A DNA stretch of 64,000 nucleotides from NCBI GenBank assembly GCA_963727715.1, contig CAVSGX010000004.1:8455-72454 (forward strand). The letters run 5' to 3'. The notes beneath the pieces are model-generated. The model made no database searches, was not told the origin of the DNA, and was given only the letters and a program-made list of their open reading frames with translations. This DNA is from an uncultured bacterium (GTDB lineage Bacteria > Patescibacteriota > Minisyncoccia > Phycocordibacterales > DATDWN01). Made by a program: the position numbers and the translations under genes. Positions 10,856-61,843 of the stretch are shown in pieces (the first letter of the stretch is position 1; each line of letters starts with the position of its first letter).

Positions 10856-11113
10856 TTCTTGTAAGTAGGAAAGAAAAGAGCGATTATGCTCGTTTCTTCT
10901 TTGCAGCTTTTTTCTTCTTTGCCATAAAAGTGTATTTGAAACCAACCGGCTAGCCAATTGATTCCAGAAAAAAATTAATTTTTTTAAAGTTCGCAACGAA
11001 AATATTTTTTCGTTGTTCCGACCTGTCATAATTATAGTACAGAAAAAAATAAAAAAATATTTTTTTCAGACAAAAGTGTGGATAACTATTTTTCGAAAAA
11101 ATATTTGCAAAAC

Positions 11114-11321
11114 AAATTTTCAAAAAGTATTTTCTAGAGCACGAATATTTTTCTGCTGAAAAATTTCTCTCGCTCGCCACTCAAGAAAACAATCGTCCTC
11201 GATGACGGGACTTCCGGCGAACTCCTCGCTTCGCTCGTCAAACACCGCCTTCACCCTCTCCCATCTCGTCGTTGTTTTCTAAGTGGCTCCGCAGTCTCCA
11301 AAAAACACTTTTTGAAAATTT
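11114..11321. repeat. TIR-bounded intergenic element (family B, copy E4)
   Basis: aaattttcaaaaagt (11114-11128) is the reverse complement of actttttgaaaattt (11307-11321). The imperfect IR continues inward to ..ttttttggag. The core is GC-richer, with an A/T hairpin and a tcgcttcgctc motif, the same architecture as 61674-61843. Confidence 0.5.
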
Positions 11322-11351
11322 TTTTTGTGACATATTCTTGTCTCAGCGGGA

Positions 11352-11699: not shown

Positions 11700-13901
11700 T
11701 TATTGATTCTCTATCTGCTGAATGTATTGTTCCCCTTGTGTTTTGAAATCAGGTTGTTGAGTTATTATTTGGTTTATGAGGTCAATAGCCTTCTGTTTCT
11801 GTCCTATCTGCAAATAAGCTGAGGCCAAAGACAATTTGTATTGCAAGTTGGTTGGATCACTTTGCAAACGAGTGGACAAAATGGAAATGACATCTTGATA
11901 ATCATGGACTGCGGCATAAGTTTCCAAAAATCTGTTGTCGGAAATAATGACTTTCGGATCAATTTTTGATTCCATTTCTTTCAAAACATCCGGCTTTTTA
12001 TCATAAATCGCGCCAACAGCATAAATTATCTTTCCATCGGGAGAATCGGGGGCCAAATCGTAACCAGTCTGGAAAGCTTGAAAACCAGAATCATAATCCC
12101 CGGCCCCGATATAAGCCTGACCAAGAGCAAAGTATATGGAAGGTTTGTTTGGTGATTCAGCAGCAGCTCGTTTCAGATAAATCAGGGCTGTACTATATTG
12201 TCCGAAATTTCCGTAAAACTCGCCGGCAAAAAGCAAATAACGAGCATCATGCGGAGTGTTGGCAATTTTAATTTTAATCTGCTCCGCCCCAAGATTGTAG
12301 AATTGCTGTTTCAAATCGCTCGGCACTTGCTGGGAAGATTCAACTTGAGCAGAAAAAGAGACCATCTGTTCCAGAGCTTCGCTTGTGCCAAAAGAATTGT
12401 AACTGAAAACTTTTTTAAAATTCTGCAAATTGTTTGAGAGATCAGTAAGAGATTTTGGCGGAGTGATAGCCGAGATAAGAGTGACATTAGCCAAAATAGC
12501 TGGAACATTTATAAAATAGATTCCAGCCACGACCAAAATGGTGATAAGCGGAGCAAAAATATAGTTTTCACTGTCTTTGGAAAAAGTTTTGCTGTAAAAC
12601 TGGCCGGATGGTTTTTCATCGGCTGTGCTTCTGGTATGGACATAACCCAAAATAGAAAAGAACAAAATGTAACTTATGAGGTTGTCAAAGACGAAGAGAT
12701 TATGAAATACATAAGCGGCAATCATCCCGGTCAGAAGACTTTTTTCCGTCACAGACATCTTGCTCCCCCTTCTCCATATATAATAGAGTAGAGCGACATA
12801 CATTGAGGCATAAGCCAGAAAACCGACAATGCCTCCGGCTATGAGCCAATCCAAAACTATGTCGTGAGTGCGGTCAAACCACTGCTCCTGATTCCACATC
12901 CGCGTATCGTAATATTTGTTAAAGACAAAATTGAAACTTTCCTGCCCCCAGCCGAAAATCGGTCGTTCAATGACGCCTTTGACGGCCATAGGCCAAACAT
13001 AATAACGGCCCTGACTTTGAAGTTCCCCCAGACCCATTGAGGCAAAACGCGACAGAACCGGACTTTTCTGGACGAAAGAAACATTGCGAAGACTGATAAA
13101 ACTGACAATCAAAATGACAATGCCGATAAGCACGCCGTAAGCGGTTTTGCGCAAAGTTTTATTTTCTTTTTCTTTCCAAGCAACAATGATGGAAGCCAAA
13201 ACGAGACCGCCGATAAGGCCAAGAATCGCTCCCCTGGTGGCTGTGAAATACAGAATCCACGCTTCAAACAAAACCACCAAACCATAAATCCATTTTTGCC
13301 ATTTTTTGGTATCTTCTCGGAAGAAAAAATAAAGTGACAGGAAAATATTGAAAACCAGATAAATGGCCAGATAGGAAGCATTGCCAAGTGTGGCATCAAG
13401 TCTGACACCGCCTTGGTTGATTGTCAGCAAACCCAGAAGTTGCAAAGTCCCGTAAATAGACATCAGGACACTGGCCCCGATAGAGATGTTGAAAAATTGA
13501 TACCACCTTTTGGCGCTTTGAAAAACTCCGGTAGCCACAATGTAATAAAGAACAAGATGAAAAATCAAAACAAAACCTTCCATTCTTTCGTAGTTGCTCC
13601 ACAAACTTTTGTAAACATTGGCGGAAAGCAGATCGGCCACAAGCATTGCTCCGGCAAAAATAAGGATTGATTTGGTGATCCAGGACATTTTCGGTCGATA
13701 TTCGGGCGATATGACGCACAACATGGCATAAAGCCCGAACAAAATTTCAACTAAGATGCGAAAAACAAAACCTTTGCCGGAAATAAATGGGAAAAACATA
13801 TTGACTGGAACAAAAAAAGCGATGAACGGAACAAGAAACAGGCCGATTGTTGTGGCCCACAAAAGTGCGTTTTTGGTTTTCATATGGAAAGAGTATAGCA
13901 A
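11700..13901 (-). CDS. O-antigen ligase/polymerase-like membrane protein with C-terminal TPR repeats
   Basis: 733 aa, more than 10 TM segments. FTATRGAILGLIGGLVL resembles Wzy_C/O-antigen ligase loops. The C-terminal 250 aa or so has a TPR-like A/Y/G pattern (ALGQAYIGAGDYDSG, LASAYLQIGQKQKA). Confidence 0.65.
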   Translation of the reverse strand: MLYSFHMKTKNALLWATTIGLFLVPFIAFFVPVNMFFPFISGKGFVFRILVEILFGLYAMLCVISPEYRPKMSWITKSILIFAGAMLVADLLSANVYKSLWSNYERMEGFVLIFHLVLYYIVATGVFQSAKRWYQFFNISIGASVLMSIYGTLQLLGLLTINQGGVRLDATLGNASYLAIYLVFNIFLSLYFFFREDTKKWQKWIYGLVVLFEAWILYFTATRGAILGLIGGLVLASIIVAWKEKENKTLRKTAYGVLIGIVILIVSFISLRNVSFVQKSPVLSRFASMGLGELQSQGRYYVWPMAVKGVIERPIFGWGQESFNFVFNKYYDTRMWNQEQWFDRTHDIVLDWLIAGGIVGFLAYASMYVALLYYIWRRGSKMSVTEKSLLTGMIAAYVFHNLFVFDNLISYILFFSILGYVHTRSTADEKPSGQFYSKTFSKDSENYIFAPLITILVVAGIYFINVPAILANVTLISAITPPKSLTDLSNNLQNFKKVFSYNSFGTSEALEQMVSFSAQVESSQQVPSDLKQQFYNLGAEQIKIKIANTPHDARYLLFAGEFYGNFGQYSTALIYLKRAAAESPNKPSIYFALGQAYIGAGDYDSGFQAFQTGYDLAPDSPDGKIIYAVGAIYDKKPDVLKEMESKIDPKVIISDNRFLETYAAVHDYQDVISILSTRLQSDPTNLQYKLSLASAYLQIGQKQKAIDLINQIITQQPDFKTQGEQYIQQIENQ

Positions 13902-38594: not shown

Positions 38595-38660
38595 AAAAAT
38601 TCAAAATTCAAAAACAAAAGAAAAAACAAATCGACAAGAGACAAGCTACCTTTTTGGAAA
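38595..38660 (-). promoter_or_regulatory. Conserved 3' flank of a DGR variable repeat (copy A)
   Basis: aaaaattcaaaattcaaaaacaaaagaaaaaacaaatcgacaagagacaagctacctttttggaaa is identical to 40605-40670 and 43419-43484. Confidence 0.6.
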
Positions 38661-39650
38661 TCACAAGAACGAGCGGGAGAGGCGACCACCCAGAGGCGGA
38701 TGGGAACTGGACGGAGCATCGGCACGGACACCGAGCCGGGAACCGGCGGGGTTCCAATAGGCGCAGACGACACGAAAGGAAGATGGGGCGGTTTTGTCAG
38801 GGTTTGGCACTTTAGACCCGGGCAAAGCGGTCCAGTAGTATAGACCATCTTTCTCGTTTTTGGTGTCTATGTGCTTGCCTGTTTGTTCAAAGATTTTTCT
38901 TTGCAGGATGAGATAATCGGACAGAGTTAGAGATTGGTTCGGAGGCAAGGAGAGAAAGGTTTCAATCTTTTTGTTCAGAGTTTGTTTAAGCTCTGATTGT
39001 TGCCAGAGTTCTTGACTGTGGACTAGAACGATTCTTCTTTTTTTGTCTTCTATTACTCCTTCAAACCCGCCACCCGAGTTGAAATTGCTTCCGGTGTATG
39101 TTTCGTTGTATCCTTCCGACATTTTAGCGTTTAGGTCTGTCAGGTTTGGCAGAGTTTCCGGAATGAGCAGGATTGTGTCAAAACCGTGTTTTTCTATTTC
39201 TTCTCTGATTTGGTCAATGTTTCTTTCCCAGATGTTTTTCATCGTCTCGGAGAAGTCTTTCGGTCTGTCTATGGAGTGGGTTGTGTAAAAGGAAGTAAAG
39301 TATTCTATTTCTTTTTCAATATCTATGGTTATGGTTTCTTTCTTTTCTTCAGTGGTTGTTTTGCCGGTTTTTTCGTCTTTTGTCTCTTCGATATGTTTGT
39401 ATTCCACTTCTAGAGTTGTTGAGGATTTGCCTTCTATCTTTCTTTTGAGAGAACGGCATTGGGAGAGTGTTTCTTTGATTTTCAGGCTTAGTTCTTTCTG
39501 TTTCTCTGTATCTCCGCTCTCAATGGCTTTTAGGAGTTTATCTTTCATTTCTTCGGCCTGAGAGAGCAGGCCTTCCATTACGGTCAAGTCGGCCAGAGCT
39601 TGTTCTTTGGTTGGTGGAGAGTTTGGGATTTTGGGAGATTCGTGGGACAT
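38661..39650 (-). CDS. DGR target protein 1 (cytoplasmic, coiled-coil N-terminus, C-terminal variable CLec-like region)
   Basis: 329 aa. Identical to the 40671..41660 product except for the last 32 aa or so (VVCAYWNPAGSRLGVRADAPSSSHPPLGGRLSRSFL), which overlie the VR. Confidence 0.85.
   Translation of the reverse strand: MSHESPKIPNSPPTKEQALADLTVMEGLLSQAEEMKDKLLKAIESGDTEKQKELSLKIKETLSQCRSLKRKIEGKSSTTLEVEYKHIEETKDEKTGKTTTEEKKETITIDIEKEIEYFTSFYTTHSIDRPKDFSETMKNIWERNIDQIREEIEKHGFDTILLIPETLPNLTDLNAKMSEGYNETYTGSNFNSGGGFEGVIEDKKRRIVLVHSQELWQQSELKQTLNKKIETFLSLPPNQSLTLSDYLILQRKIFEQTGKHIDTKNEKDGLYYWTALPGSKVPNPDKTAPSSFRVVCAYWNPAGSRLGVRADAPSSSHPPLGGRLSRSFL
38664..38771 (-). repeat. DGR variable repeat VR-A
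   Basis: Aligns to the TR (43071-43177). By hand count it differs at 15 TR-adenine positions plus one non-A position (tgt>ggt). Confidence 0.85.
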
Positions 39651-39666
39651 AATGGATGGATGATAA

Positions 39667-40347
39667 TCAGTCTAATTTTATTAATTTCTTTGTCAGAACA
39701 GGAATTTCTTTTTGAAAAAAAGTTTTGACCGAATTCCAATCAGCGTCAAAAAAGATGACCGGCTCTGGATCGCTTTCGGCATCGTCAAAATAAACCATAC
39801 TTTTCAAGATATGGTGATAGTCGTGAGCCACAGACGGATACTGTCCCGGCAATCGTCTGATAATATTTTCCAGCGGTTCCACATTTTTGGCGCACCAGTA
39901 CAAATCAAAGAAATCTCTTTTTCTGCCTCTTTGCGAGCTGGCGATTATTTTCATCACGGCCACATCCGTTTTATTCAAAATTTTGACAAAACCGTATTCC
40001 AAAAATTTTTGTTTTGGAATAAAAAACGGATAAGCGATAAAACTGATTTTGGTGTCATACAATACGCCATATAAAGTGTTTGGTTCATCAATATCCGTGC
40101 TCCAATTTTCATTGCTTGCAAAACGAGATAACAGTTTCTTTGTTATAAAACTTTTTTCTGTGGTAAAAAAATCCAAATCAACAGATTTGCGATTGCCGGC
40201 CTGCAAAGCTAAGGCGGTGCCACCGGCCAGATACCAGCCTGATTCACTCAGCCATTCTTGGGTTGATAAAAAATCCAGAGCTGTTTTGGTTGATTTGGGT
40301 AAACATGAAAAGTTGATGATATTTAATTTTGAAGTGTCAGTGTCCAT
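39667..40347 (-). CDS. Nucleotidyltransferase AbiEii/AbiGii-like toxin family protein
   Basis: WYLAGGTALALQAGNRKSVDLDFFT is the family N-terminal signature. Confidence 0.65.
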   Translation of the reverse strand: MDTDTSKLNIINFSCLPKSTKTALDFLSTQEWLSESGWYLAGGTALALQAGNRKSVDLDFFTTEKSFITKKLLSRFASNENWSTDIDEPNTLYGVLYDTKISFIAYPFFIPKQKFLEYGFVKILNKTDVAVMKIIASSQRGRKRDFFDLYWCAKNVEPLENIIRRLPGQYPSVAHDYHHILKSMVYFDDAESDPEPVIFFDADWNSVKTFFQKEIPVLTKKLIKLD

Positions 40348-40547
40348 AATGCTTTTGTTCTTGGTCTCAAAGACCGTGATGCAGAAACAACTTTTCTCAA
40401 CAATGCCTTGTCATAAAAATTCCAAAGCCAGCGAACCTCATTATCCCTGCCAAAATCTAAAATTCTCTCAATTATATATTGAGCGTTTTTTTCAGTGTCA
40501 ATTCTGCTGACATCGGTGTCCCAAAACAAAGATTGTCTAAATGGCAT
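40323..40547 (-). CDS. Small partner protein of the AbiEii-like NTase (putative antitoxin-like)
   Basis: 74 aa. LFWDTDVSRIDTEKNAQYIIERILDFG pattern. Overlaps the NTase start by 25 nt, which suggests translational coupling. Confidence 0.5.
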   Translation of the reverse strand: MPFRQSLFWDTDVSRIDTEKNAQYIIERILDFGRDNEVRWLWNFYDKALLRKVVSASRSLRPRTKALWTLTLQN

Positions 40548-40670
40548 ACCTTCATTATATCAAATTTTGAGACAATATTCAACAAAAATCAAAATGCAAA
40601 AATAAAAAATTCAAAATTCAAAAACAAAAGAAAAAACAAATCGACAAGAGACAAGCTACCTTTTTGGAAA

Positions 40671-41660
40671 TCACAAGAACGAGCGGGAGAGGCGACCACC
40701 CAGAGGCGGATTGGAAATGGACGGATCATTGGCAACGACATTGAGCTGGGAACCGTCGGGGTACCAATGGGCGCAGACGACACGAAAGGAAGATGGGGCG
40801 GTTTTGTCAGGGTTTGGCACTTTAGACCCGGGCAAAGCGGTCCAGTAGTATAGACCATCTTTCTCGTTTTTGGTGTCTATGTGCTTGCCTGTTTGTTCAA
40901 AGATTTTTCTTTGCAGGATGAGATAATCGGACAGAGTTAGAGATTGGTTCGGAGGCAAGGAGAGAAAGGTTTCAATCTTTTTGTTCAGAGTTTGTTTAAG
41001 CTCTGATTGTTGCCAGAGTTCTTGACTGTGGACTAGAACGATTCTTCTTTTTTTGTCTTCTATTACTCCTTCAAACCCGCCACCCGAGTTGAAATTGCTT
41101 CCGGTGTATGTTTCGTTGTATCCTTCCGACATTTTAGCGTTTAGGTCTGTCAGGTTTGGCAGAGTTTCCGGAATGAGCAGGATTGTGTCAAAACCGTGTT
41201 TTTCTATTTCTTCTCTGATTTGGTCAATGTTTCTTTCCCAGATGTTTTTCATCGTCTCGGAGAAGTCTTTCGGTCTGTCTATGGAGTGGGTTGTGTAAAA
41301 GGAAGTAAAGTATTCTATTTCTTTTTCAATATCTATGGTTATGGTTTCTTTCTTTTCTTCAGTGGTTGTTTTGCCGGTTTTTTCGTCTTTTGTCTCTTCG
41401 ATATGTTTGTATTCCACTTCTAGAGTTGTTGAGGATTTGCCTTCTATCTTTCTTTTGAGAGAACGGCATTGGGAGAGTGTTTCTTTGATTTTCAGGCTTA
41501 GTTCTTTCTGTTTCTCTGTATCTCCGCTCTCAATGGCTTTTAGGAGTTTATCTTTCATTTCTTCGGCCTGAGAGAGCAGGCCTTCCATTACGGTCAAGTC
41601 GGCCAGAGCTTGTTCTTTGGTTGGTGGAGAGTTTGGGATTTTGGGAGATTCGTGGGACAT
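40671..41660 (-). CDS. DGR target protein 2 (paralog of target 1)
   Basis: 329 aa. C-terminus VVCAHWYPDGSQLNVVANDPSISNPPLGGRLSRSFL. Confidence 0.85.
   Translation of the reverse strand: MSHESPKIPNSPPTKEQALADLTVMEGLLSQAEEMKDKLLKAIESGDTEKQKELSLKIKETLSQCRSLKRKIEGKSSTTLEVEYKHIEETKDEKTGKTTTEEKKETITIDIEKEIEYFTSFYTTHSIDRPKDFSETMKNIWERNIDQIREEIEKHGFDTILLIPETLPNLTDLNAKMSEGYNETYTGSNFNSGGGFEGVIEDKKRRIVLVHSQELWQQSELKQTLNKKIETFLSLPPNQSLTLSDYLILQRKIFEQTGKHIDTKNEKDGLYYWTALPGSKVPNPDKTAPSSFRVVCAHWYPDGSQLNVVANDPSISNPPLGGRLSRSFL
40674..40781 (-). repeat. DGR variable repeat VR-B
   Basis: Differs from the TR at 9 adenine positions (hand count) plus the same tgt>ggt change. Confidence 0.85.
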
Positions 41661-41672
41661 GGAAGTATTCTA

Positions 41673-42700
41673 TCATGTTATAACAATATCATTCAATATT
41701 GAAGTCAGTTTGTTTTTTAATCCAAATGAATCGCAGTGTTTCAGTAAAGCAAAATAAGACTGAAAATTATTCTTGTTCATTCTTTCAAAAATTTTTTGCT
41801 TGGTTTTATCTCTCAATAAAAGACAATCTGGCAAAGTCAGAGATCCTAGAAAATCTACTCCCCATTTTAATTTTCTGATTGAGATTTTATCATCCGGGAT
41901 TTGCAGAAACAGTTTTGCCATAAATTTTTTAATTTCAACCAAACAAAACCCCAATCTTTTTTTATTTTTATTTACCAAAATAAAATCGTCGTTGTATCTT
42001 ATATAAAATCTGGCGTTTAATTTTTTCTTCACAAAATGGTCAAAATCGTTCAAATAAATGTTGGCGAAAATCTGGCTGGTGATGTTGCCGAGCGGGATGC
42101 TTTTGTCAGAGCCATGAAGCGAGCAAAAACTTTCTACTATTTTCCCCACTTCCAAAAAAATATTTTCATTTTTCACTTTTCTTTTGATAAATTTCAGCAG
42201 TAGGCGGTGGTTGACACTTTCAAAGTATTTTTTGACATCGCATTTTAAAATAAAAACATCCCCATTTTTTCTTTTCGCCAATCCATTGAAATATTGGAGA
42301 GTTTTGACGGCTTTATGCGTTCCTTTTCCGTCTCTGGATGAATAACGGCTTTATGCGTTCCTTTTCCGTCTCTGGATGAATATGAGTCGGCAATAAATGC
42401 CGGCTCAAATAGATTTTTCAAATAATCGGATATTATTTGATGAATAATTCTATCTTTAACTTCAGCTTTGTGAATATTTCTTTTCTTGTTGTCAGTAACA
42501 ATAAAATGCGAATACCCGCCATGGCGGTAAGTTTTGTTTTTCAGATCTCTGTGCAAATCAAAAATATTGTCTTCCAAATGTCTTTCAAAAATCATTACAT
42601 CCATCTTGGAGGACTTTCCCCGCCGAAATTTCCGCCAAGCTGAAAATATATTATCAAGACTGAATAATTCGTTATAATTTTTATGGAACAAGACGCTCAT
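41673..42700 (-). pseudogene. DGR reverse transcriptase, frame broken by a 38-bp tandem duplication
   Basis: Motifs SYSSRDGKGTHKAV, FILKCDVKKYFESVNH, IPLGNITSQIFANIYLN (DGR-type GxxxSQ) and YIRYNDDFILV (YxDD). Deleting one copy of 42307-42344 restores a 329-codon ORF. Confidence 0.85.
42307..42382. repeat. Perfect 38-bp tandem duplication inside the RT gene
   Basis: acggctttatgcgttccttttccgtctctggatgaata occurs twice in a row (42307-42344 and 42345-42382). Confidence 0.9.
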
Positions 42701-42718
42701 AAAATTGAAAAATTGGAA

Positions 42719-43057
42719 ATGCCTATTATGGCCAAACTCTTTATCATTTACGAACTGACGCACAAGCTTATTTTCAAATTGCCGAAATTTGAAAGATACA
42801 CTTTGGGTGAAAAAATTGAAAATATCATCTTGGAAACGATTGAAATAATTGTCATCGCCAATGGGACGAACAAATACGAAAAAGAAAAATATTTGCTCAA
42901 AGCCAATGCCAAAGTGGAAATGCTTAAGTTGCTTTTTCGCATCGTTTTGAACTGCCAAATCATTGATTTCAAAAAATATTTGGAGGCGGAAGGGTTGCTT
43001 CAAGAAATCGGCAAAATGGCGCAAGGTTGGATAAAATACACCAGAAACGCAAAATAG
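42719..43057 (+). CDS. avd: DGR accessory variability determinant (four-helix-bundle, 23S rRNA-IVS-protein family)
   Basis: MPIMAKLFIIYELTHKLIFKLPKFERYTLGEKIENIILETIEIIVIA...LLQEIGKMAQGWIKY matches the Avd/four-helix-bundle pattern. It is on the opposite strand to the RT, TR and targets. The start could be 42683, 42719 or 42728. Confidence 0.7.
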   Translation: MPIMAKLFIIYELTHKLIFKLPKFERYTLGEKIENIILETIEIIVIANGTNKYEKEKYLLKANAKVEMLKLLFRIVLNCQIIDFKKYLEAEGLLQEIGKMAQGWIKYTRNAK

Positions 43058-43070
43058 CTTTTGTATAAAG

Positions 43071-43177
43071 CAAGAACGGCGGGAGAGGCGACAACCCAGA
43101 TTCGGATTGGAATTGGACGGATCATTGGCATTGACATTGAGCTGGGAATTGTCGGGGTTCCAATTGGCGCAGACGAC
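43071..43177 (-). repeat. DGR template repeat (TR)
   Basis: Sense (minus) strand: gtcgtctgcgcc AAT tgg AAC ccc gAc AAT tcc cAg ctc AAT gtc AAT gcc AAT gAt ccg tcc AAT tcc AAT ccg AAT ctgggttgtcgcctctcccgc. It holds 21 adenines, mostly in AAT codons. All three VRs vary at these positions. Confidence 0.9.
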
Positions 43178-43409
43178 TGCGGTCGCCCCTCGATTAGCTT
43201 TGCGTCGTCATTTCCGTTTGGAAACAAGACTCTATTTATTAGGGGCTACTTCCCCCTGACGCAAAACTGCTGTTCTTGTGTTTTATTTCCACAAATCAAC
43301 GACTATTTGGTTTCTAAAATTCAGAAACCATCTTTCGCCGTCAATTAGCGCTTCGGCAAACCAACTCATCACTGATGGCTTACGAGCCGAAGCGGGCGAT
43401 TTTTGCTTC
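43178..43409 (-). other. Structured non-coding spacer between target 3 and the TR (candidate 5' part of the TR RNA)
   Basis: Nested stems: ttgcgtc..gacgcaa, gggg/cccc, tttcc/ggaaa, ggtttct/agaaacc and gcgcttcggc/gccgaagcg. A minus-strand TTGACG-17-AATTTT promoter-like signal is present. Confidence 0.4.
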
Positions 43410-43484
43410 GCAAAAATAAAAAATTCAAAATTCAAAAACAAAAGAAAAAACAAATCGACAAGAGACAAGCTACCTTTTTGGAAA

Positions 43485-45512
43485 TCACAAGAACGAGCGG
43501 GAGAGGCGACAACCCAGATTCGGATAGGAATAGGACGGATCATCGGCACCGACAACGAGCTGGGAATAGCCGGGGTCCCAATGGGCGCAGACGACGCGGA
43601 AACCGCCGGATGGATTTTTGACTGTTGAGCCGGGTAGCCATGTCCAACCGTCTTCATCCAAATGTTTGCCTGTTTGTTCAAAATATTGCTTTTGATACAA
43701 CAAATAATCTGTCAGAGACATTTTTTCACCTTGCGATATAAACTCCTCGGCTTTTTTATTCAGAGTTTTCTTCAGTTCCGAATGGTCTTTCAGATTTTGA
43801 GCGCTGTTTTTATGAATCAAAACGATTCTTCTTTTTTTGTCTTCTATTACTCCTTCAAACCCGCCACCCGAGTCGAAATTGCTTCCGGTGTATGTTTCGT
43901 TGTATCCTTCTGACATTTTTTTATGTATATCGGTTATGGTCAATCCTCCGGGCACAAGCAAAATCTCATCAAAACCATATTTTTCTACTTCTTGTTTTAT
44001 CTCGTCATAATTGTTCACCCATATATCCGCCATTTCTTCCGCAAATGATTCCGTCAATTCAATTTCGTGAGCTTTATAAAAAAGAAGAGAATCCTCAAGT
44101 TTTTTGTCAAAATTTATTTCTATTTTCTCTTTCTTTTCTTTGCCTTTCTCGTCCACGATTTTGTGTTCGGCAGAAACCACCGGTTCAAACGAACTGCCGG
44201 TCAATTCTCTTCTTTTACTTCTGAAAAATTTCTCCAAATCGGCTATTTCATTTTCAATCTTCTCTATCCCGTCCGCCGGACTTTCGGTTTTACCACCTTC
44301 AGGAATTGCCTCAGCAGACGCTTCTTTTTCTTCTTCGTTATTTTTCTTTTTTCTTTTCGTTCCTTTGCGTTTGGAATCTTTGGTTTCTATTTTGACTTCA
44401 ACCAATCGGATGATTTCTTCCAATTTTGTTCTGTCTTCGGCGCTTTCCAGTCTGTTGACATAATAATATTTCAGGGCTTTTTGAAAAGTTTCGCTGATGT
44501 CGCCATTGTAAAAACGCAAAACAAAATTTCTGACCCGCCTCGGCTCTTCGCGGTCGTCATAGGTGAAAACTTGTGGTTGATCTTCGGCGATTTGCCTGTT
44601 TTTCAAAAGTTCTTTGGCGGTTTTGTGAAATTCCTTGTATTTTTCCAAAATTTCGGCAATGCCTGGAATTTCCGAAAGTTGTTCCTGCGTCAAACCACCG
44701 GCGCCGGATAAAAACATATCATCAGGCAATTCGGCGGTTTTCTTTTCCAAACCGTTCTCTAAACCAAACAATGCACCAGTCGCTTGCTTAAAGGTCTCTT
44801 CCGGTAATTCATTTGGCATTTTTTTATAAACCCATCTGCGAAGCTGAGCTGGATCAAGTGGCTTTCTATCCAAATAACCGGCTCCCGGAGGATTCATAAA
44901 AGCGATGATTTTGGTTTTTTGTTTAGAAACTTTAACTGTTTCCGAAGCGTCTTCTGACAAAATGACATCGCTATCACGCTCCAGAGAATCCAAAACTTCA
45001 TGCAAACGAATCAAAATGTTCGGCGCCGATGAGTTGAATTCGTCCAAAACAATAATTTTGACTTTACCGTCTTCCTGTCGTAAACCGCTAGTTACTTTTC
45101 CGTCGGCGAAAATGTATTCCGGGTCTTCCGCATTATTTTTACGAGGATTTGGTATATATCGGCCCATCAAATCCTCCACATCCGTGGCACCGTTTAAGTT
45201 TATGTAATGAACTTCGTAGCCGAGCTCACTGGCCATTTTTCGCACCGTGGTGGTCTTACCAAAAGATGTTCCGCTTTCCACGGCAATAGGGTCGCCCATG
45301 GAAAACGACACGGCGATGTCACGTTGCAGTGGCAGAGCCACTTCGGTATCATTGGTGTAGTCCTTGTAATTTTCTCTTCTTGGCACAAATTGGCCATTTC
45401 TGTTTTTAGCTTTTTCCAGAGTAACACCCATATAAGAAACACTCCCGTCAGTTTCCATTATCGGCTCCAGTTTTGCTTCCGGATTGTTAAATTGTCCTTC
45501 TGGTGTTTTCAT
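43485..45512 (-). CDS. DGR target protein 3: AAA+ (MoxR/AAA_5-like) ATPase fused to the target C-terminal module
   Basis: 675 aa. GTSFGKTTTV Walker A, IIVLDEFNS Walker B. The C-terminal 230 aa or so is homologous to targets 1/2 (KMSEGYNETYTGSNF.SGGGFEGVIEDKKRRIVL). It ends VVCAHWDPGYSQLVVGADDPSYSYPNLGCRLSRSFL. Confidence 0.85.
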   Translation of the reverse strand: MKTPEGQFNNPEAKLEPIMETDGSVSYMGVTLEKAKNRNGQFVPRRENYKDYTNDTEVALPLQRDIAVSFSMGDPIAVESGTSFGKTTTVRKMASELGYEVHYINLNGATDVEDLMGRYIPNPRKNNAEDPEYIFADGKVTSGLRQEDGKVKIIVLDEFNSSAPNILIRLHEVLDSLERDSDVILSEDASETVKVSKQKTKIIAFMNPPGAGYLDRKPLDPAQLRRWVYKKMPNELPEETFKQATGALFGLENGLEKKTAELPDDMFLSGAGGLTQEQLSEIPGIAEILEKYKEFHKTAKELLKNRQIAEDQPQVFTYDDREEPRRVRNFVLRFYNGDISETFQKALKYYYVNRLESAEDRTKLEEIIRLVEVKIETKDSKRKGTKRKKKNNEEEKEASAEAIPEGGKTESPADGIEKIENEIADLEKFFRSKRRELTGSSFEPVVSAEHKIVDEKGKEKKEKIEINFDKKLEDSLLFYKAHEIELTESFAEEMADIWVNNYDEIKQEVEKYGFDEILLVPGGLTITDIHKKMSEGYNETYTGSNFDSGGGFEGVIEDKKRRIVLIHKNSAQNLKDHSELKKTLNKKAEEFISQGEKMSLTDYLLYQKQYFEQTGKHLDEDGWTWLPGSTVKNPSGGFRVVCAHWDPGYSQLVVGADDPSYSYPNLGCRLSRSFL
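43488..43595 (-). repeat. DGR variable repeat VR-C
   Basis: Differs from the TR at 11 positions, all TR adenines (hand count). Confidence 0.9.
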
Positions 45513-48263: not shown

Positions 48264-49526
48264 TTATTTCGCTTCAAGGGCCCCGGCGGTGTATTTATTG
48301 GACGCTGACCAAAGAAGCCACGAGGAAAGGCCCGAGTCGTTCACTGCTTTGATCTCAGCCGAAACTTCGGTCGGACCGTAATCCATAGTTAAACCGAAAT
48401 CTTGTAACCAAGGGCGCAACTTCTCGGCTGTGCTGGCAAAATCACTGGTGGAACTGGCTAGATTTTTTTCACGAGCAACGGCTGATTGCATAGCGTAAGA
48501 AACGATTTGATACGGATACTGTTCCGGATTTTTGAAACCGTCAAAGTTTTTAGAGTAATGGGATGGATAAACCATAGGCGAGACATAATCAAAATACGGC
48601 AAGGCATTGATTAAAACCTGCCCGATACCCATATCGTCATTGGCTGTCGTGGTTTCCCCGAAAAGATCGGCTGAAATTTTCAGAGCCGACGCTTTGGTCG
48701 GCTCCCCGACCTTCGATTTTGCAATCAAAGCGTCGGGGACGCCATCTTTTTGTGGCGTGCCGTCATTTTCGGCCAGACGGTCGCGCAAATAGCTGAAAAA
48801 ATTTTTCAAAATTTCAGTTTTCGGGGTGCTCGTGCTGAACGGATAGGAAATGTCTTGCATATTTCCATCGGATGGAAAACGAATATAATCAAAATTAACC
48901 TCATCAAAACCAATGGCTCGCGCTTGTCTGGCCAGCGAAACAATGTAATCCCAATACTCTGGCGCGCCCGGATCAATCCAAGAAATACCTTTGTTATCTT
49001 TCCAAACAGCCGTACCAGCTAAATTTTTGACAGCTAGGTCAGGACGAACTTTAACGAAGTAAGCGTCTTGAAAAACAGCAATGCGGGCAATGGCGTAGAT
49101 GCCGTTTTGGTGGAGCTCCGCCACAAAATTTTGCATATCCGGCACGCGATCATCCTCGGAACCGTAAGCTTTCAATTTTGGATCGCTGATCGGAAAAAAT
49201 ATTTTGCCGGAATAATCCTTGATATCAATAACCAAAGTATTGAGTTCAGTATCGTCAATCAACTTAACCAACGGCTCTCGCAAACTTTTGTCCGAAGCTG
49301 TCCAGCTAGTCATATAAATTCCCTTGACCGGATCCGGTGTCGGCACATATGACGGCAGAAAAATTTTAGCTGGCGCTTGGACAACTGAAGTGGAGGAAGT
49401 GGTGACGCCAATAGAATTAAAAACAAAATGTCGGCTAAAAATCTGCGGAAGATAAAAACAAAAAACAACCAAAAAAAGGACGACACAAAATATGATTACC
49501 TGCCTGTGTCGCGATAAAAAGTTCAT
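48264..49526 (-). CDS. Putative glycoside hydrolase-like TIM-barrel protein (DUF4015-like), membrane-anchored
   Basis: N-terminal TM helix. VKGIYMTSWTA..LNTLVIDIKDYSG..FDEVNFDYIRFP matches the pattern. Confidence 0.55.
   Translation of the reverse strand: MNFLSRHRQVIIFCVVLFLVVFCFYLPQIFSRHFVFNSIGVTTSSTSVVQAPAKIFLPSYVPTPDPVKGIYMTSWTASDKSLREPLVKLIDDTELNTLVIDIKDYSGKIFFPISDPKLKAYGSEDDRVPDMQNFVAELHQNGIYAIARIAVFQDAYFVKVRPDLAVKNLAGTAVWKDNKGISWIDPGAPEYWDYIVSLARQARAIGFDEVNFDYIRFPSDGNMQDISYPFSTSTPKTEILKNFFSYLRDRLAENDGTPQKDGVPDALIAKSKVGEPTKASALKISADLFGETTTANDDMGIGQVLINALPYFDYVSPMVYPSHYSKNFDGFKNPEQYPYQIVSYAMQSAVAREKNLASSTSDFASTAEKLRPWLQDFGLTMDYGPTEVSAEIKAVNDSGLSSWLLWSASNKYTAGALEAK
48685..48738 (+). repeat. 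Double-hairpin repeat, copy A (inside a CDS)
   Basis: gccgacgctttggtcggctccccgacc..gtcgggg. Its first 27 nt match 54826-54852 at 26 of 27 positions. Confidence 0.7.
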
Positions 49527-54815: not shown

Positions 54816-54825
54816 CGAGCTATAA

Positions 54826-54864
54826 GCCGACGCTTCGGTCGGCTCCCCGACCGCAACGTCGGGG
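54826..54864 (+). repeat. Double-hairpin repeat, copy B (3' of 16S)
   Basis: gccgac gcttcg gtcggc tccccgac cgcaac gtcgggg. Confidence 0.7.
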
Positions 54865-54867
54865 TTG

Positions 54868-54887
54868 TCCTTTATTTTGTTCCGTTC
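54868..54887 (-). promoter_or_regulatory. 3' strand of the 16S precursor processing stem
   Basis: tcctttattttgttccgttc is the perfect reverse complement of 58617-58636. Confidence 0.7.
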
Positions 54888-55380
54888 ACCCGAGTCTTTC
54901 CTCGGTGTCAAACTGTTTTAGGACGCACAGTCATCGTCCATTGTCTGCTCAATTGAGGCAGGCAATATCGACTCAATCGTTCGACACATTCTAGGAACGC
55001 GCCGGACTTCTCGATCAGAGACCGAGAGTTTTTCAAATTGAATTATTCCACGACCAGCTTCCGCTAGCCGTGCCTTGTTACGACTTAGTCTTTGTCATTG
55101 AGCTTACCTTGGTGCCGCAAAAACGACGCTTCGGGTATTCCCAACTCCCCTGACTTGACGGGCGGATTTCGATAACTTTCGTTTCAGGTTCCCTGAAGTT
55201 TTTAACTTCACCATATCGCTTCCCGTTATTCACGACTTTGGACGTAGCGAGCGGATTTCCCGCACTACGCGAGTTCGATAGTTTCTAGAACTAACGATTT
55301 TGTCCTTCATTTTGTTTTTCAACAAAACTACTACGACGCAGCTGACTTCCAGCACTAATTTTTGGAGTCAAGATTTTCAC

Positions 55381-55407
55381 TTGACAAACACATTTTTTTC
55401 TTATTAT
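55381..55407 (+). promoter_or_regulatory. Promoter-like signal in E1
   Basis: TTGACA (55381-55386) within the hairpin gtcaag..cttgac, followed by TATTAT 15 nt downstream. Confidence 0.35.
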
Positions 55408-55426
55408 TTCATAGGAGGTACTTCGT

Positions 55427-55534
55427 ATGCACATATTTGAGGTTTTTGTATGTGTTGTTTTGGCAATCATGTTTCTTCCTTTGCCAATTTTCTTTTTGCG
55501 TTTTATTGCTTGTATAATAACTGATGCTGATTAA
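55427..55534 (+). CDS. 35-aa hydrophobic peptide (type-I-toxin-like), candidate
   Basis: AGGAGG (55413-55418), 8 nt, then ATG. MHIFEVFVCVVLAIMFLPLPIFFLRFIACIITDAD, TAA stop. Too short for the ORF track. Confidence 0.4.
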   Translation: MHIFEVFVCVVLAIMFLPLPIFFLRFIACIITDAD

Positions 55535-55558
55535 ATCTAATCAGTTATTAGTCGACTT

Positions 55559-55590
55559 GAGTGATTTTGTCAAATCACTCTTTTCTTTTT
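55559..55590 (+). terminator. Intrinsic terminator of the E1 cassette
   Basis: gagtgattt-tgtc-aaatcactc (9-bp stem), then ttttcttttt. Confidence 0.55.
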
Positions 55591-56087
55591 CCAAAAATTA
55601 GTGCTGGATCTCCCAGGGTCATTTATATTTCTGTTCCAAACATCCGAATCGAGATTTTCGATAAGATTTATCGTGTGCTTCCTTCTGACTCACCGCAGAA
55701 GTCGCACATCTCTTTTTTTTGATTCGGCTGCTCTTTGCTACTAGGATCCTTCAGTCCAGTCATTGCTGATTGTGGACCTACCCGTTCGCTATTTTCACAC
55801 TCCTGTGAAAAGTTGGATTTGAACCAACTAGATATATAAACTGCCTGGCGCATTTTATTCTGAGTACAAGACTTGAGAACGTATTCACCGCGGTATGTCT
55901 GACCCGCGATTACTAGCAATTCCAACTTCATGGGGTCGAGTTTCAGCCCCCAATCTGAACTGGGGCGACTTTTCTAAGGATTGGCTCAGGGTTACCCCGT
56001 CGCAACCTGTTGTAGTCGCCATTGTATTATGTGTGTAGCCCAAGGTATCAAAGGGACATGCTGATCTGGCGTCATCCTCGCCTTCCT

Positions 56088-56197
56088 CCCAGCTCCAGTT
56101 GCGCAAGATGAACGAACTCGGTTAAGACCGAATACGGACATCGATGTTTGCACAGAGAGACATCTACTTATGATGTTCTTGTGCAACTGGAGCTGGG
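56088..56197 (-). other. Expanded helix-40 hairpin of 16S (about 110 nt)
   Basis: cccagctccagttgcgcaaga (56088-56108) pairs with tcttgtgcaactggagctggg (56177-56197). This replaces the short CCAGU-GAUA-AACUGG helix of E. coli. Confidence 0.65.
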
Positions 56198-56457: not shown

Positions 56458-56641
56458 ACCCAGGCGCTTGACTTAACGCGTTAGCTACGCCACGCAGAGG
56501 GTCGATACTCCGCATAGCTAGTCAAGATCGTTTAGGGCGTGGACTACTGGGGTCTTAATGTTACTTCAAAATTTTGGGAAATTTTGAGGCACAACATTTC
56601 TGTTGTACTCTGCATGTTGCCATGCAGTTCGGACTATATCT

Positions 56642-57403
56642 TTATCTGTATGTATTCCACTTAGCTTTTTTCTTTTCATATTCTGCTATTATGACAGATT
56701 CTGAAAAATTACTAAGAGAAACCATTTCAGATATCCAGCGTTCTTGAAATTGAGAGTTTTTATATAGAAGAATTGCTTTGGATAACATGCTCGATACTGG
56801 TATGTATGGCAGTATGATACGCAAGAATTTTTTTAATTCTTCTTGTGACCTAATCCATAACCGCCAGTATTGTTCTTGCTTCCCATCTTGCTTACGCCCG
56901 ACGGGGGCAACAATGGCACGAACATCCCAAACAACTTTAAGATAGCGAGCTAGCATTTCGACTGATTGTTTTGAAAAACCATCAGTACAAAACACACCTT
57001 TTCTGGCGCCGTAACCAATAAGCGAACCGTCATCACACCACCAAACGGCGAGTGATAACGCTGTCATTTGATTAAGCCACCTACGCTCTATAAGCAATTT
57101 ATTTTGTTTGTGAGTTAAATGATGAAGTTCTGTAAGAGATGAAGTTCGCCTACTGGCAAATCTCCATTTTTTGTTCTTACTGTATCCATCAGGTTCCTGC
57201 ACAAACACACTGCTATCTCCTGCTATCTCTTTGAGAGCTTGCGCTTTCCATAAGAGATAATCTTTCTGCATTTCCGAATGACGAATTTGTAAATTCGCAT
57301 TGAAATAATTTTTTTGGATTTTTAGCGAGCCGTCTCCAAGGATTGAACCGAAGATAATAGCTTTCGCTTCATCCGACAAAGGCACATATTTCGTATCATG
57401 CAT
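56642..57403 (-). CDS. LAGLIDADG homing endonuclease (double-motif)
   Basis: 253 aa. IIFGSILGDGSL and LAVWWCDDGSL motifs. Confidence 0.85.
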   Translation of the reverse strand: MHDTKYVPLSDEAKAIIFGSILGDGSLKIQKNYFNANLQIRHSEMQKDYLLWKAQALKEIAGDSSVFVQEPDGYSKNKKWRFASRRTSSLTELHHLTHKQNKLLIERRWLNQMTALSLAVWWCDDGSLIGYGARKGVFCTDGFSKQSVEMLARYLKVVWDVRAIVAPVGRKQDGKQEQYWRLWIRSQEELKKFLRIILPYIPVSSMLSKAILLYKNSQFQERWISEMVSLSNFSESVIIAEYEKKKAKWNTYR

Positions 57404-57509
57404 ATAATTTTAAGTTAATTGCACGACGACAGAATAGCACCAACTATCTTACTCAATTTCATAGTCTCTACGGGGTTTCTAGCACTAATTTTTGGAGTCA
57501 AGCTTTGAC

Positions 57510-57538
57510 TTGACAAGATTCATTTTATGATTTAACAT
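57510..57538 (+). promoter_or_regulatory. Promoter-like signal in E2
   Basis: TTGACA (57510-57515), 17 nt, TAACAT (57533-57538). The -35 box overlaps the hairpin gtcaag..cttgac. Confidence 0.4.
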
Positions 57539-57559
57539 CAATTCCAGGAGATTAACTCG

Positions 57560-57679
57560 ATGGAATTTATTATGATATTGATCTGTTTAGGAGTTTTTTG
57601 TTTGATCACAGATATGATGATAACTGTTGCTATTGATATCTGTGAATGGATCGATCATTACCTGCACCGGCTTTTATAG
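57560..57679 (+). CDS. 39-aa hydrophobic peptide (type-I-toxin-like), candidate
   Basis: AGGAG (57546-57550), 9 nt, then ATG. MEFIMILICLGVFCLITDMMITVAIDICEWIDHYLHRLL, TAG stop. Confidence 0.4.
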   Translation: MEFIMILICLGVFCLITDMMITVAIDICEWIDHYLHRLL

Positions 57680-57697
57680 CGGTGCAGTTTTCTTTTT
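57662..57697 (+). terminator. Intrinsic terminator of the E2 cassette
   Basis: ctgcaccg..cggtgcag stem overlapping the stop codon, then ttttcttttt. Confidence 0.55.
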
Positions 57698-58616
57698 CCA
57701 AAAATTAGTGCTAGAAACTTCCCTCGGGGTTGTCCATACGAAATCAGTAAATTTCATATTGTATGGAGTTTCCCCGATATAGCTAGATTACAATTCTATG
57801 TCACCATAGAAAAGAGACACCTTCGTCCTATATTTTATTAGCGGGACTGGATTATCTAATCCCATTCGCTACCCACGCTTTCGTGTTTCAGTGTCAGGAG
57901 TGGCCCAATGTGCTGCCTTCGCTTTCGGTGTTCCCCATGATATCAACGGATTTCACCCCTACTCCATGAGTTCCACACATCCCTGCCATCCTCTAGTCGT
58001 GCCGTTTCGCTCGCACTTCCGGGGTTAAGCCCCGGGTTTTAACAAGCGACTAACACAACCACCTACACACCCTTTACGCCCAATAATTCCGGATAACGCT
58101 CGGGGCACTCGTATTACCGCTGCTGCTGGCACGAGTTTAGCAACCCCTTATTCTTGAGGTACTATCAATAAACTTTCTCCCTCACAAAAGATGTTTACGA
58201 CCCAGAGGGTCTTCATCCATCACGCGGCGTCGCTCGATCAGGCTTTCGCCCATTGTCGAATATTCTCGGCTGCTGCCACCCGTAGGTGTATGGACCGTCT
58301 CTCAGTTCCATCGGTGGGGGCCAAGCTCTCACTCCCCCTACGCGTCATAGCCTTGGTAGGCCGTTACCCTACCAACTAGCTGATACGACGCAGACTTTTC
58401 CTTTAGCGATAAATCTTTCCTCCGAAGAGAATATCAAGTATTACCTAATCTTTCGACTAGCTATTCCTGACTAAAGGGTAAATCTCTGCGCATTATTACC
58501 TCGTTCGCCACTGTCCTTGCGGACCGTTTGACTTGCATGCCTTATCCACGCCGCCAGCGTTCATCCTGAGCTAGGATCAAACTCTTAATAAAGATTTATT
58601 AAGATCTATCTTTTAA

Positions 58617-58636
58617 GAACGGAACAAAATAAAGGA
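58617..58636 (-). promoter_or_regulatory. 5' strand of the 16S precursor processing stem
   Basis: gaacggaacaaaataaagga is complementary to 54868-54887. Confidence 0.7.
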
Positions 58637-58831
58637 AAATACTTTTGGTATCGCGATTATTTTATTTTTCTTTGATGAACACTGATTGTGTTTTTGGTTG
58701 ATTGTTATTGATGTTGTGAATTTTGCTGAATTCACTTTCCGGAATTATTTTAAAAGAATATTTTGCATCCGACTGTTTTTGACAAAACAGCCGAACTGTA
58801 AAACTTGCACGTTTTACATTCTCTAAATAAA

Positions 58832-58872
58832 GCCGACGTTTTCAGTCGGCTCCCCGACCTAATGCGTCGGGG
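58832..58872 (+). repeat. Double-hairpin repeat, copy C (5' of 16S)
   Basis: gccgac gttttca gtcggc tccccgac ctaatgc gtcgggg. Confidence 0.7.
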
Positions 58873-61673: not shown

Positions 61674-61843
61674 ACAAATCCGACTGGCATAATAAATTTT
61701 TGGAGATGTAAACTTTTCCAGCGAAAAGTTTACTCGGTCCTCGGCTCGGATTTGTCAAGAGCCTTCGCTTTGCTCAGGTCATTGACAAAACCAGCTCCTC
61801 GCCTGCGTATGCTCCAAAAATTTATTATGCCAGTCGGATTTGT
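61674..61843. repeat. TIR-bounded intergenic element (family B, copy E3)
   Basis: Perfect 32-bp terminal inverted repeats: acaaatccgactggcataataaatttttggag (61674-61705) and its reverse complement (61812-61843). The core has the hairpin gtaaactttt..aaaagtttac and the motif ccttcgctttgctc. Confidence 0.6.

Follow-up and report, generated by a model that had tools for sequence, protein, structure and literature searches.

Self-splicing introns were reportedly found by Salman and colleagues in 2012 in the 16S ribosomal RNA (rRNA) genes of Thiomargarita, one of them near position 795 and some with LAGLIDADG genes, and in 2015 Brown and colleagues are said to have described LAGLIDADG group I introns in the 16S genes of the candidate phyla radiation (CPR), or Patescibacteria. 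In the survey of Tsurumaki et al. (2024, PMC11270868), inserts were present in 48% of CPR 16S genes, and 35% of the inserts were classed as group I by Rfam. LAGLIDADG_2 and LAGLIDADG_3 genes were located at particular 16S sites, group-II-like inserts occurred at 16S position 1400, and one CPR enzyme, I-ShaI, different from the one considered here, cleaved its intron-less 16S site (PMC11270868). Here we analyzed a stretch of 64,000 nucleotides (nt), hereafter the window, from an uncultured bacterium of the Patescibacteriota (assembly GCA_963727715.1, contig CAVSGX010000004.1, positions 8,455 to 72,454), in which a 16S gene is interrupted by a group I intron that itself holds, on the opposite strand, a small gene cassette that we call E2. 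We put at roughly 0.8 the probability that these are two nested selfish elements in an essential gene, a group I intron and an exchangeable antisense cassette.

The intron agrees with those of PMC11270868 in its CPR host, its place in a 16S gene, its group-I-like fold and its LAGLIDADG_2 open reading frame (ORF) at a conserved rRNA site, and the window gene likewise has a group-II-like insert near position 1400. It is a further member of a published class that is widespread in Parcubacteria, in keeping with the original prediction for this DNA, which had stated that such introns are known in CPR 16S genes. It adds one member to that class and is outweighed in importance by the cassette. The terms nested and antisense are absent from PMC11270868, in which only ORFs with Pfam domains were annotated, unlike the description of the cassette given here. 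The nested antisense cassette had been predicted to be the novel part of the locus, and no description of E cassettes was found in the limited library searched, which agrees with that claim and is not proof of novelty. E cassettes are apparently an undescribed family of exchangeable minigene cassettes in a known intron class. The two elements, and a sister cassette, E1, in the same gene, have the following features.

56554 to 57853, minus strand: group I intron, 1300 nt (exon junction read, Rfam Intron_gpI half-matches, covariation in 15 relatives)
56642 to 57403, minus strand: LAGLIDADG_2 homing endonuclease gene in the P8 loop, 253 amino acids (aa), two motifs (Pfam match, rRNA sense)
57481 to 57712, plus strand: cassette E2, an exchangeable unit of 232 nt (16-nt arms AGCACTAATTTTTGGA and TCCAAAAATTAGTGCT; the same arms in E1 and 19 metagenome loci)
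57497 to 57538, plus strand: constant palindrome GTCAAGnnnnnCTTGACA with the -35 box (57510-57515), then the -10 box TAACAT (57533-57538) (promoter scan)
57546 to 57679, plus strand: Shine-Dalgarno sequence AGGAG (57546-57550) and a 39-codon ORF (57560-57679), MEFIMILICLGVFCLITDMMITVAIDICEWIDHYLHRLL (ORF reading)
57662 to 57697, plus strand: intrinsic terminator, CUGCACCG-loop-CGGUGCAG followed by UUUUCUUUUU, overlapping the last ORF codons
55351 to 55605, plus strand: cassette E1, 255 nt (arms and -35 region as in E2, its own 35-codon membrane-peptide ORF at 55427-55534 and its own terminator)
55166 to 55860, minus strand: host insert of E1, group-II-like, 695 nt, at about position 1398 of 16S (domain-5-like hairpin GCGUAGUGCGGGAAAUCCGCUCGCUACGU)

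On the plus strand, E2 reads in the order arm, -35 palindrome, -10 box, AGGAG, ORF, GC-rich hairpin with T-run, and arm. The predicted promoter, TTGACA-17-TAACAT, has 10/12 matches, with its -35 box within the palindrome GTCAAGCTTTGACTTGACA. AGGAG stands 9 nt before the ATG, and the encoded peptide reaches a Kyte-Doolittle maximum of 2.55 over a 17-residue window, corresponding to one membrane helix. Together with 6 base pairs (bp) of host stem, the 16-nt arms form perfect 22-nt inverted repeats (57475-57496 and 57697-57718). The arm sequence AGCACTAATTTTTGGA has four exact matches in the window, all of them arms of E1 and E2, and seven with three mismatches or fewer, a total reached by no shuffle. 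The original prediction was right in describing the cassette as nested and antisense; the location that it gave, between the 5' splice site and the endonuclease ORF, is here refined to the terminal loop of P6, where E2 sits exactly between the strands GGG (57723-57721) and CCC (57474-57472). In the minimum-free-energy fold of 57726..57468, taken in the rRNA sense, a closing stem of 3 + 22 bp insulates the cassette (-88.5 kcal/mol, z = -11.2). No Rfam family matched E2, and the sole match to its 39-aa peptide was the peptide itself, both among 5.8e9 clustered proteins (searched with one extra upstream codon in the query) and among 1.84e9 representative proteins (searched with full HMMER). A weak outward promoter-like site, TTGTCA-17/18-AAAAAT with 9/12 matches, lies on the rRNA-sense strand at the constant left end of both cassettes (57488-57516 and 55358-55387, minus strand), and in E2 it faces the endonuclease ORF, 85 nt downstream.

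We then scanned metagenomes with a pattern representing the cassette left end, by which the left arm is fixed. Nineteen loci were recovered, each with a complete cassette of 210-371 nt built to the same grammar, and distinct cargos number 18. Every occurrence of the arm in the 299 kb of retrieved DNA was part of a cassette pair, and a scan of viral contigs for the arms gave no match. At one end the left arm and the -35 palindrome are constant, and at the other the T-run and the right arm; the -10 box, leader, ORF (25-73 aa) and terminator hairpin are variable. The -35 box keeps a fixed offset of 29-30 nt in 17/18 cassettes, and the GC-rich terminator hairpin differs in every one, the T-run after it being unchanged. 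A 16S or 23S gene was found near the cassette at nine loci, and the remainder lie, judging by their flanks, in P6-like group I loops or in the 1400-site insert.

Peripheral loops of group I introns tolerate arbitrary insertions, and E2 could accordingly be a mere structural extension of P6, or a dead miniature inverted-repeat element, in which promoter, ORF and terminator are fortuitous. A peptide without homologues fits that explanation, as does the base composition of this AT-rich DNA, where promoter-like matches in the region number 10 against 7.4 expected. It is nevertheless very unlikely in view of the ordered grammar, which is kept in 18/18 distinct cassettes despite their unrelated interiors, with the -10 box 16-18 nt after the -35 box. 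In 14/18, an ATG follows a ribosome-binding site at 5-12 nt and opens an ORF that stops inside the terminator or shortly ahead of it, and two of the other four carry a structured RNA with compensatory changes.

The claim that the intron had been invaded by E2 is borne out by relatives with an empty site and by the replacement of cargo between near-identical introns. Ten distinct members of the intron family have at the P6 position a plain hairpin of 16-45 nt, which is GGGAAGUUGCCUCGUCGGCAACCCC in L002. When the window was compared with locus L040, the 141 nt upstream of the cassette were 100% identical and the 927 nt downstream 95.7%, against 48% for the cassette interior, which is chance level; the same comparison with L006 gave 100%, 92.8% and, again at chance level, 45.5%. 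Mutually unrelated cargos make up 17/18 of the distinct set. The sole related pair, in cassettes at L034 (~13286-13534, in the 5' region of a 23S gene) and L037 (920-1166, in a 16S P6 loop), is a structured RNA of ~135 nt without an ORF, 84% identical between the two, with four double compensatory changes and no Rfam match. Ten cargo proteins searched against Pfam and PHROGs gave nothing above threshold save one weak match to a PHROG of unknown function, and no relatives of the L033 cargo were found. We regard E2, with good confidence, as an insertion with swappable cargo.

Cargo turnover far faster than flank divergence would also be expected if the 16-nt arms were half-sites of a palindromic target, AGCACTAATTTTTGGA followed by TCCAAAAATTAGTGCT, for a homodimeric homing endonuclease or site-specific recombinase encoded elsewhere, with cassettes inserted or exchanged at the center of the site in the manner of a minimal integron or a free-standing homing cassette. 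The arms are identical in sequence in nearly all copies, rather than merely complementary, which argues for recognition by a protein and not RNA pairing alone, and most LAGLIDADG enzymes of CPR rRNA inserts are of the single-domain, homodimeric kind (PMC11270868). On the other hand, the left arm was set by our search pattern, no empty palindrome AGCACTAATTTTTGGATCCAAAAATTAGTGCT turned up, although no scan was aimed at it, no cassette with an endonuclease or recombinase gene was seen, and no enzyme of this kind was identified, although no dedicated search for one was made. We consider this origin of the arms distinctly improbable, and continue to treat E2 as an exchangeable cassette that arrived by insertion.

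The second cassette of the window, E1, has a peptide with a Kyte-Doolittle maximum of 2.86, and is lodged in a peripheral hairpin of a host insert that has no ORF of its own. In the relatives L016, L012 and L021 the E1 site is a short hairpin. The host insert matched the Rfam group-II-D1D4-1 model with 32.8 bits against a threshold of 35, and we call this putative intron group-II-like, a term used in the same way in PMC11270868.

E cassettes are antisense at every locus with an identifiable rRNA strand, over at least five insertion sites. This orientation may be kept because a terminator in the sense direction would abort rRNA transcription. The P6 loop elsewhere holds cassettes of other families (L009, L010 and L016; L004/L005 and L013), which are sense-oriented and have no promoter and their own inverted-repeat arms, and antisense placement is therefore a property of the E family and not of the site. 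One of these sense families encodes a basic protein of 59-65 aa with ~33% identity across three lineages, the third codon position being clearly more variable in one of three pairwise comparisons, and another encodes membrane peptides of 37-60 aa.

The antisense placement opposite heavily transcribed rRNA, common to all E cassettes, also invites comparison with type I toxin-antitoxin systems. The cassette would then be an addiction or growth-coupling module with a membrane toxin peptide, and the pre-rRNA or excised intron, very abundant and complementary to the peptide mRNA over its full length, would serve as the antitoxin RNA, such that a drop in rRNA transcription, or loss of the intron RNA, would be needed for the peptide to be made. 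Peptides of 34-73 aa with a single strongly hydrophobic helix do account for E2, E1 and about half of the protein cargos, and the predicted mRNA fold has a 5' hairpin that partly hides the ribosome-binding site and start codon. Yet soluble proteins account for about half of the cargos and a structured non-coding RNA for one, no likeness to known toxin families was seen in Pfam (the PADLOC library was not searched), and avoidance of a sense terminator explains the orientation bias equally well. We find such a module unlikely. Among possible roles for the cassette, we would place first a cargo damped by pairing with abundant intron RNA, ahead of a type-I-like toxin, and the toxin ahead of arms acting as half-sites for an enzyme. 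A wider proposal, which we hold only tentatively, is that E cassettes represent an unrecognized exchangeable class, for which peripheral hairpin loops of self-splicing CPR rRNA introns are insulated landing pads and the arms half-sites of a dedicated endonuclease or recombinase, and whose cargos would provide genome-reduced cells with a hypervariable pool of small proteins and RNAs, shared horizontally and expressed inversely to rRNA transcription through full-length antisense pairing.

The host of E2 is delimited by the 16S gene itself, which lies on the minus strand with Rfam small-subunit rRNA matches at 58592-57762 and 56668-55812 and a tRNA-Ile gene downstream. A 1300-nt insert (57853..56554) splits the gene between GGAUUAGAU and ACCCCAGUAGUCC; in the rRNA sense the last bases of exon 1 are GGGAUUAGAU, at 57854, and exon 2 restarts with ACCCCAGUAGUCC at 56553. 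Splicing would join GGAUUAGAU to ACCCCAGUAG, and the intron-less site would read GGGATTAGATACCCCAGTAGTCC. The junctions, read directly on the minus strand, coincide exactly with the limits first proposed, 56554-57853, and the 5' exon was found to end in U and the insert in G (56554), as had been claimed. The junction has a one-base ambiguity, A being the first base of both insert and exon 2, and the register with U ahead of the insert and G at its end was chosen because it is the only one of the two that is compatible with a group I intron. By the numbering of the 785F/806R primer sites, we take the insertion point to be about U793/A794, in the 790 loop of helix 24. The parts of the intron, all on the minus strand, are as follows.

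57854 to 57857: 5' strand of P1, the last four exon bases AGAU, paired to guide GUCU, the splice-site pair being a U.G wobble (3/4 pairs invariant, 15/15)
57815 to 57821: putative internal guide, GGU (P10 part, against exon 2 ACC) followed by GUCU (P1 part, against exon 1 AGAU) (sequence complementarity)
57794 to 57811: P2 hairpin UUCUAUG-GUGA-CAUAGAA with a GNRA loop (covaries in relatives)
57779 to 57786: 5' strand of P3, CUAGCUAU, with its partner AUAGUUGG at 57447..57440 (94% of cells paired; G.U to G-C and A-U changes)
57724 to 57777: P4-P5-P5a-P4' (UCGGGG AAA ... CCCCGA) (Rfam model positions 60-144; covariation in P5)
57472 to 57723: P6 (GGG/CCC), the host P6a stem (GUUUCU/AGAAAC) and the cassette arms (fold encloses the cassette)
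57461 to 57466: 5' strand of P7, GACUAU, after J6/7 GUAGA, with its partner AUAGUC at 56637..56632 (invariant 15/15; Rfam J8/7-P7 alignment)
56567 to 56643: J8/7 AAAGAUA, the 3' strand of P7, P9 (GCAA loop), P9.1 (GAAA loop) and P9.2 (Rfam alignment)
56554: terminal G, or omega G (read directly)

A search with the Rfam Intron_gpI model gave two half-matches on the rRNA strand, in the correct order and on either side of the insertions. The first, at 57777-57680, covered model positions 60-144 with P4, P5 and P6 (33.3 bits, E 2e-6), and the second, at 56758-56610, covered P8, J8/7 AAGAUAUAGUCC, P7' and P9 (32.3 bits, E 4e-6). Intron relatives were gathered from loci L001-L005, 19 genome loci and two metagenome loci. 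After the ORF and long P6 inserts were trimmed, 15 distinct introns were aligned, and a hand-derived P1-P9.2 structure was scored on the alignment. Standard pairs filled 80.1% of cells, compared to 40-48% when the partners were slid by 1-3 columns, two-sided changes occurred in 36/85 pairs, and the observed covariation score was reached by 0/500 shuffles. Covariation was strong in P1a, P5, P6/P6a and P9, the last being 99% paired with both sides changed in 5/7 pairs; P3 and P4 showed one-sided changes via G.U intermediates; and P7 was the same in every intron. Counterparts of P2 in relatives are CUCAAUG-GCGA-CAUUGAG and CCCGAAG-GCGA-CUUUGGG. P8 pairs UCUGU (57433..57429) with ACAGA (56649..56645), the endonuclease ORF lying in its loop and ending with its stop codon inside J8/7.

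A conserved group I core is thus present, comprising the P3-P8 and P4-P6 domains, J8/7 and the guanosine-binding helix P7, and the original prediction, by which a core should be detectable with Intron_gpI, stands on the ordered half-matches and the covariation. The insert is a real group I intron, and our confidence in the anatomy of intron and cassette is high. With GNRA loops on P2 and P9 and no P5abc, its architecture presumably resembles that of the small bacterial IC3-type introns. At the splice sites, the guide is kept as GG(G)UGUC in all relatives, and the proposed P1/P10 pairings would fit group I logic.

Three candidate pairings were rejected: GUAAUCUAG as the guide, for which no register yields a U.G pair; GUCUC/GAGAC as P3, which competes with the invariant P7, is not adjacent to P4 and is mismatched in L002; and AUCUGU within the ORF as the 5' strand of P8, which is missing from L002. 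A hairpin across the 5' splice site, GGAUU-AGAU-AAUCC, is conserved and may compete with P1. Conserved AGUAAC (56560-56565, minus strand) could pair with UUACU(G) of the P5a loop (~57744-57749), which is likewise conserved, and both are lost together in L037; a tertiary contact positioning the 3' splice site is possible. Between P7 and P3', GAAAUUGAG (~57452-57460, minus strand) is fully complementary, in 4/4 members inspected, to CUCAAUUUC in the 3' part of the endonuclease ORF (~56745-56753), which may reflect either a helix that closes the ORF domain over a long distance or chance agreement imposed by coding constraint.

A terminal G had been put forward as typical of such introns. It is present in the window, in L006, L040, L021, L022 and L037, that is in 6/18 family members with a readable 3' end; in the other 12/18 (L001, L002, L004, L009-L012, L014 and L016-L019) the intron ends in A, with UCA ahead of exon 2 ACCCC, and P7 is still invariant. 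The members without terminal G, and the shortness of P1, would be understandable if the 1.3-kb insert were not spliced at all and were instead an intervening sequence cut out by RNase III-type processing without ligation, leaving a fragmented 16S and the core as a relic; examples of intervening sequences left unligated in bacterial rRNA are on record (PMC11270868). This is extremely improbable in our judgment: the core has stayed conserved in distant lineages, where it shows compensatory changes; none of the terminal G, U.G pair and P10 pairing is missing in the window; and the insertion site is the functionally critical 790 loop. A Coxiella intron without terminal G is, to go by a title cited in PMC11270868, reported to self-splice. 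We therefore retain the reading of the insert as an intron that would be spliced.

The claim of a 253-aa, two-motif LAGLIDADG endonuclease encoded in the rRNA sense was confirmed with Pfam, in which the ORF matched LAGLIDADG_2, now its assigned subfamily, over residues 15-184 with 111.5 bits (cut-off 25; E 5.3e-32). The ORF is intact, and the motifs SILGDGSL and WWCDDGSL have their acidic residues, as in the monomeric type. The ORF equals in length its homologues of 253-256 aa. A total of 702 homologues was found, the best having 90% identity and the same length, and their hosts include Doudna-, Taylor-, Nomura-, Lipton-, Wolfe- and Campbellbacteria. The closest intron relative is P0001, from locus L006. 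In the PDB, a weak relative is 6x1j, an intron-encoded endonuclease (E 1e-5).

Several points weigh against the interpretation of the locus as two nested selfish elements. Both Intron_gpI scores fall under the RF00028 gathering score of 50, and at Rfam gathering thresholds no intron is found in the window, the half-matches appearing only in E-value mode; this is explained by the 244-nt cassette and the 762-nt ORF (~1 kb) that split the model, and unsplit introns at the related locus L041 score 74.5 and 61.6 bits. P1 is just 3-4 bp long and invariant, and so is without proof by covariation. The E2 peptide is a singleton, unmatched in Pfam and PHROGs like the other cargos apart from the one weak PHROG match, and in a peptide without homologues selection cannot be shown. 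Arm diversity is under-sampled, the left arm being set by the search pattern, and the P6 loop that hosts E2 also hosts the sense-oriented cassettes of other families. Neither a target-site duplication nor a transposase, a recombinase or an autonomous partner was seen, and the mobility of the cassette is therefore deduced from its distribution alone. Every functional point is inferred from sequence, be it that the intron splices, that the endonuclease is active, that the peptide is transcribed and translated, how the cassette moves or what the peptide does, and our confidence in function is low.

With these points in mind, we propose the following mechanism. The guide would pair with exon 1 AGAU, through the U.G wobble, and with exon 2 ACC, and the core (P3-P8, J8/7 AAGAUAUAG and P7 GACUAU/AUAGUC) with the terminal G would restore the 790 loop by performing two transesterifications. 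Cleavage of 16S alleles that lack the intron, by the two-motif LAGLIDADG enzyme from the P8 loop, would let the intron spread through homing. In the intron RNA, the arms and the 6 bp of host stem would pair and extrude ~200 nt of foreign sequence as an extension of P6, leaving the ribozyme core untouched. From the opposite DNA strand, E2 would be transcribed from its own promoter, its 39-residue single-helix membrane peptide translated, and the transcript ended at the intrinsic terminator. The likeliest routes of spread for the cassette are co-conversion, in which it hitch-hikes when the intron homes, and recombination between the constant ends, of 35 and 22 nt, of different copies.

Other features were noted around the 16S gene and elsewhere in the window. 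A long-hairpin insert of ~99 nt in the 16S gene (~56095-56193, minus strand), which Rfam aligns as a 99-nt gap around model position 1157, probably represents an expansion segment, or else an intervening sequence of the RNase III type. A 23-nt inverted repeat (54865-54887 and 58617-58639, 96% complementary) encloses the whole 16S and tRNA-Ile unit and is probably a precursor processing stem. The hairpin motif AGCCGACG..CGGCUCCCCGACC recurs at 48684-48711, 54825-54852 and ~58831-58872, flanking the rRNA unit and also occurring elsewhere, and one copy scores as terminator-like. Two intergenic long inverted repeats, at 61674-61843 (32 nt, perfect) and 11108-11327 (32 nt, 88% complementary), have inner ends, ...TTTTTGGAG and CTCCAAAAA..., that recall the E arms, and they may be related hairpin elements outside rRNA. 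At 38595-43919, a tandem array of three repeats of ~2-2.8 kb, with 65-96% identity over 300 nt and sub-blocks of 100% identity, suggests paralogous genes.

The locus is of interest in that ribozyme loops within an essential single-copy rRNA gene act as safe harbors for a second layer of mobile DNA. Constant ends combined with cargo that is nearly never repeated, including orphan membrane peptides and a structured RNA, raise questions on the capture, exchange and birth of small genes in tiny genomes, and the strict antisense placement opposite one of the most heavily transcribed genes of the cell lets transcription conflict and antisense control be studied as a natural experiment. The arms mark spots where ~200-350 nt fit into group I and group-II-like introns with the core apparently kept, which could be of use in ribozyme engineering. 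Such inserts also add kilobases to 16S genes, along with small genes that are never called by pipelines annotating rRNA regions.

Compared to what is generally known of other systems, the E cassettes share parts of several. Phage morons are likewise self-contained transcription units riding as passengers in a mobile element, here a prophage, with diverse cargo that is often small and of unknown function; unlike E cassettes, they have no terminal inverted repeats or constant ends, are not placed in RNA structures and occur in either orientation. Correia, ERIC and Rickettsia palindromic elements resemble E cassettes in having perfect terminal inverted repeats that form a hairpin when transcribed, in measuring 200-370 bp, and in that they can carry promoters and sit harmlessly in RNA or protein genes. 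In those families the copies are non-coding, nearly identical and flanked by target-site duplications, as expected for miniature inverted-repeat transposable elements, whereas E interiors are unrelated in 17/18 cases and mostly encode a gene. E2 has the terminal inverted repeats, in its perfect 16-nt arms, and no target-site duplication was found at E2 or E1, where the flanks are instead complementary (TTTCT and AGAAA at E2, TCC and GGA at E1).

Integron cassettes are, as E cassettes are, small, interchangeable between conserved ends and diverse in the environment, with mostly orphan ORFs. They lack a promoter and depend on an integrase and attI in addition to their single attC site, whereas E cassettes have their own promoter and terminator and lie in intron loops, and no attC, attI or integrase was seen in the loci read, a test that was not exhaustive. 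The hok/sok, tisB/istR and fst systems share with E2 the gene for a hydrophobic peptide of 30-60 aa under an abundant antisense RNA, and a small hydrophobic ORF was found in E2, in E1 and in about half of the family cargos. There is no homology between these systems and the E cassettes: the E2 peptide has no Pfam match to a known toxin family and no homologue, E cargo is not always hydrophobic or even coding, and the antitoxin would be an rRNA precursor. The Thiomargarita introns are also bacterial group I introns in 16S genes and bring about heterogeneity in 16S length, although they belong to a different phylum and are not known to hold a nested cassette. Dir.S956-2 of Didymium differs from E2 in being eukaryotic, in that its gene is that of the endonuclease itself and in having no exchangeable cassette bounded by inverted repeats, and shares with E2 a protein gene placed antisense to rRNA in a peripheral loop of a group I intron.

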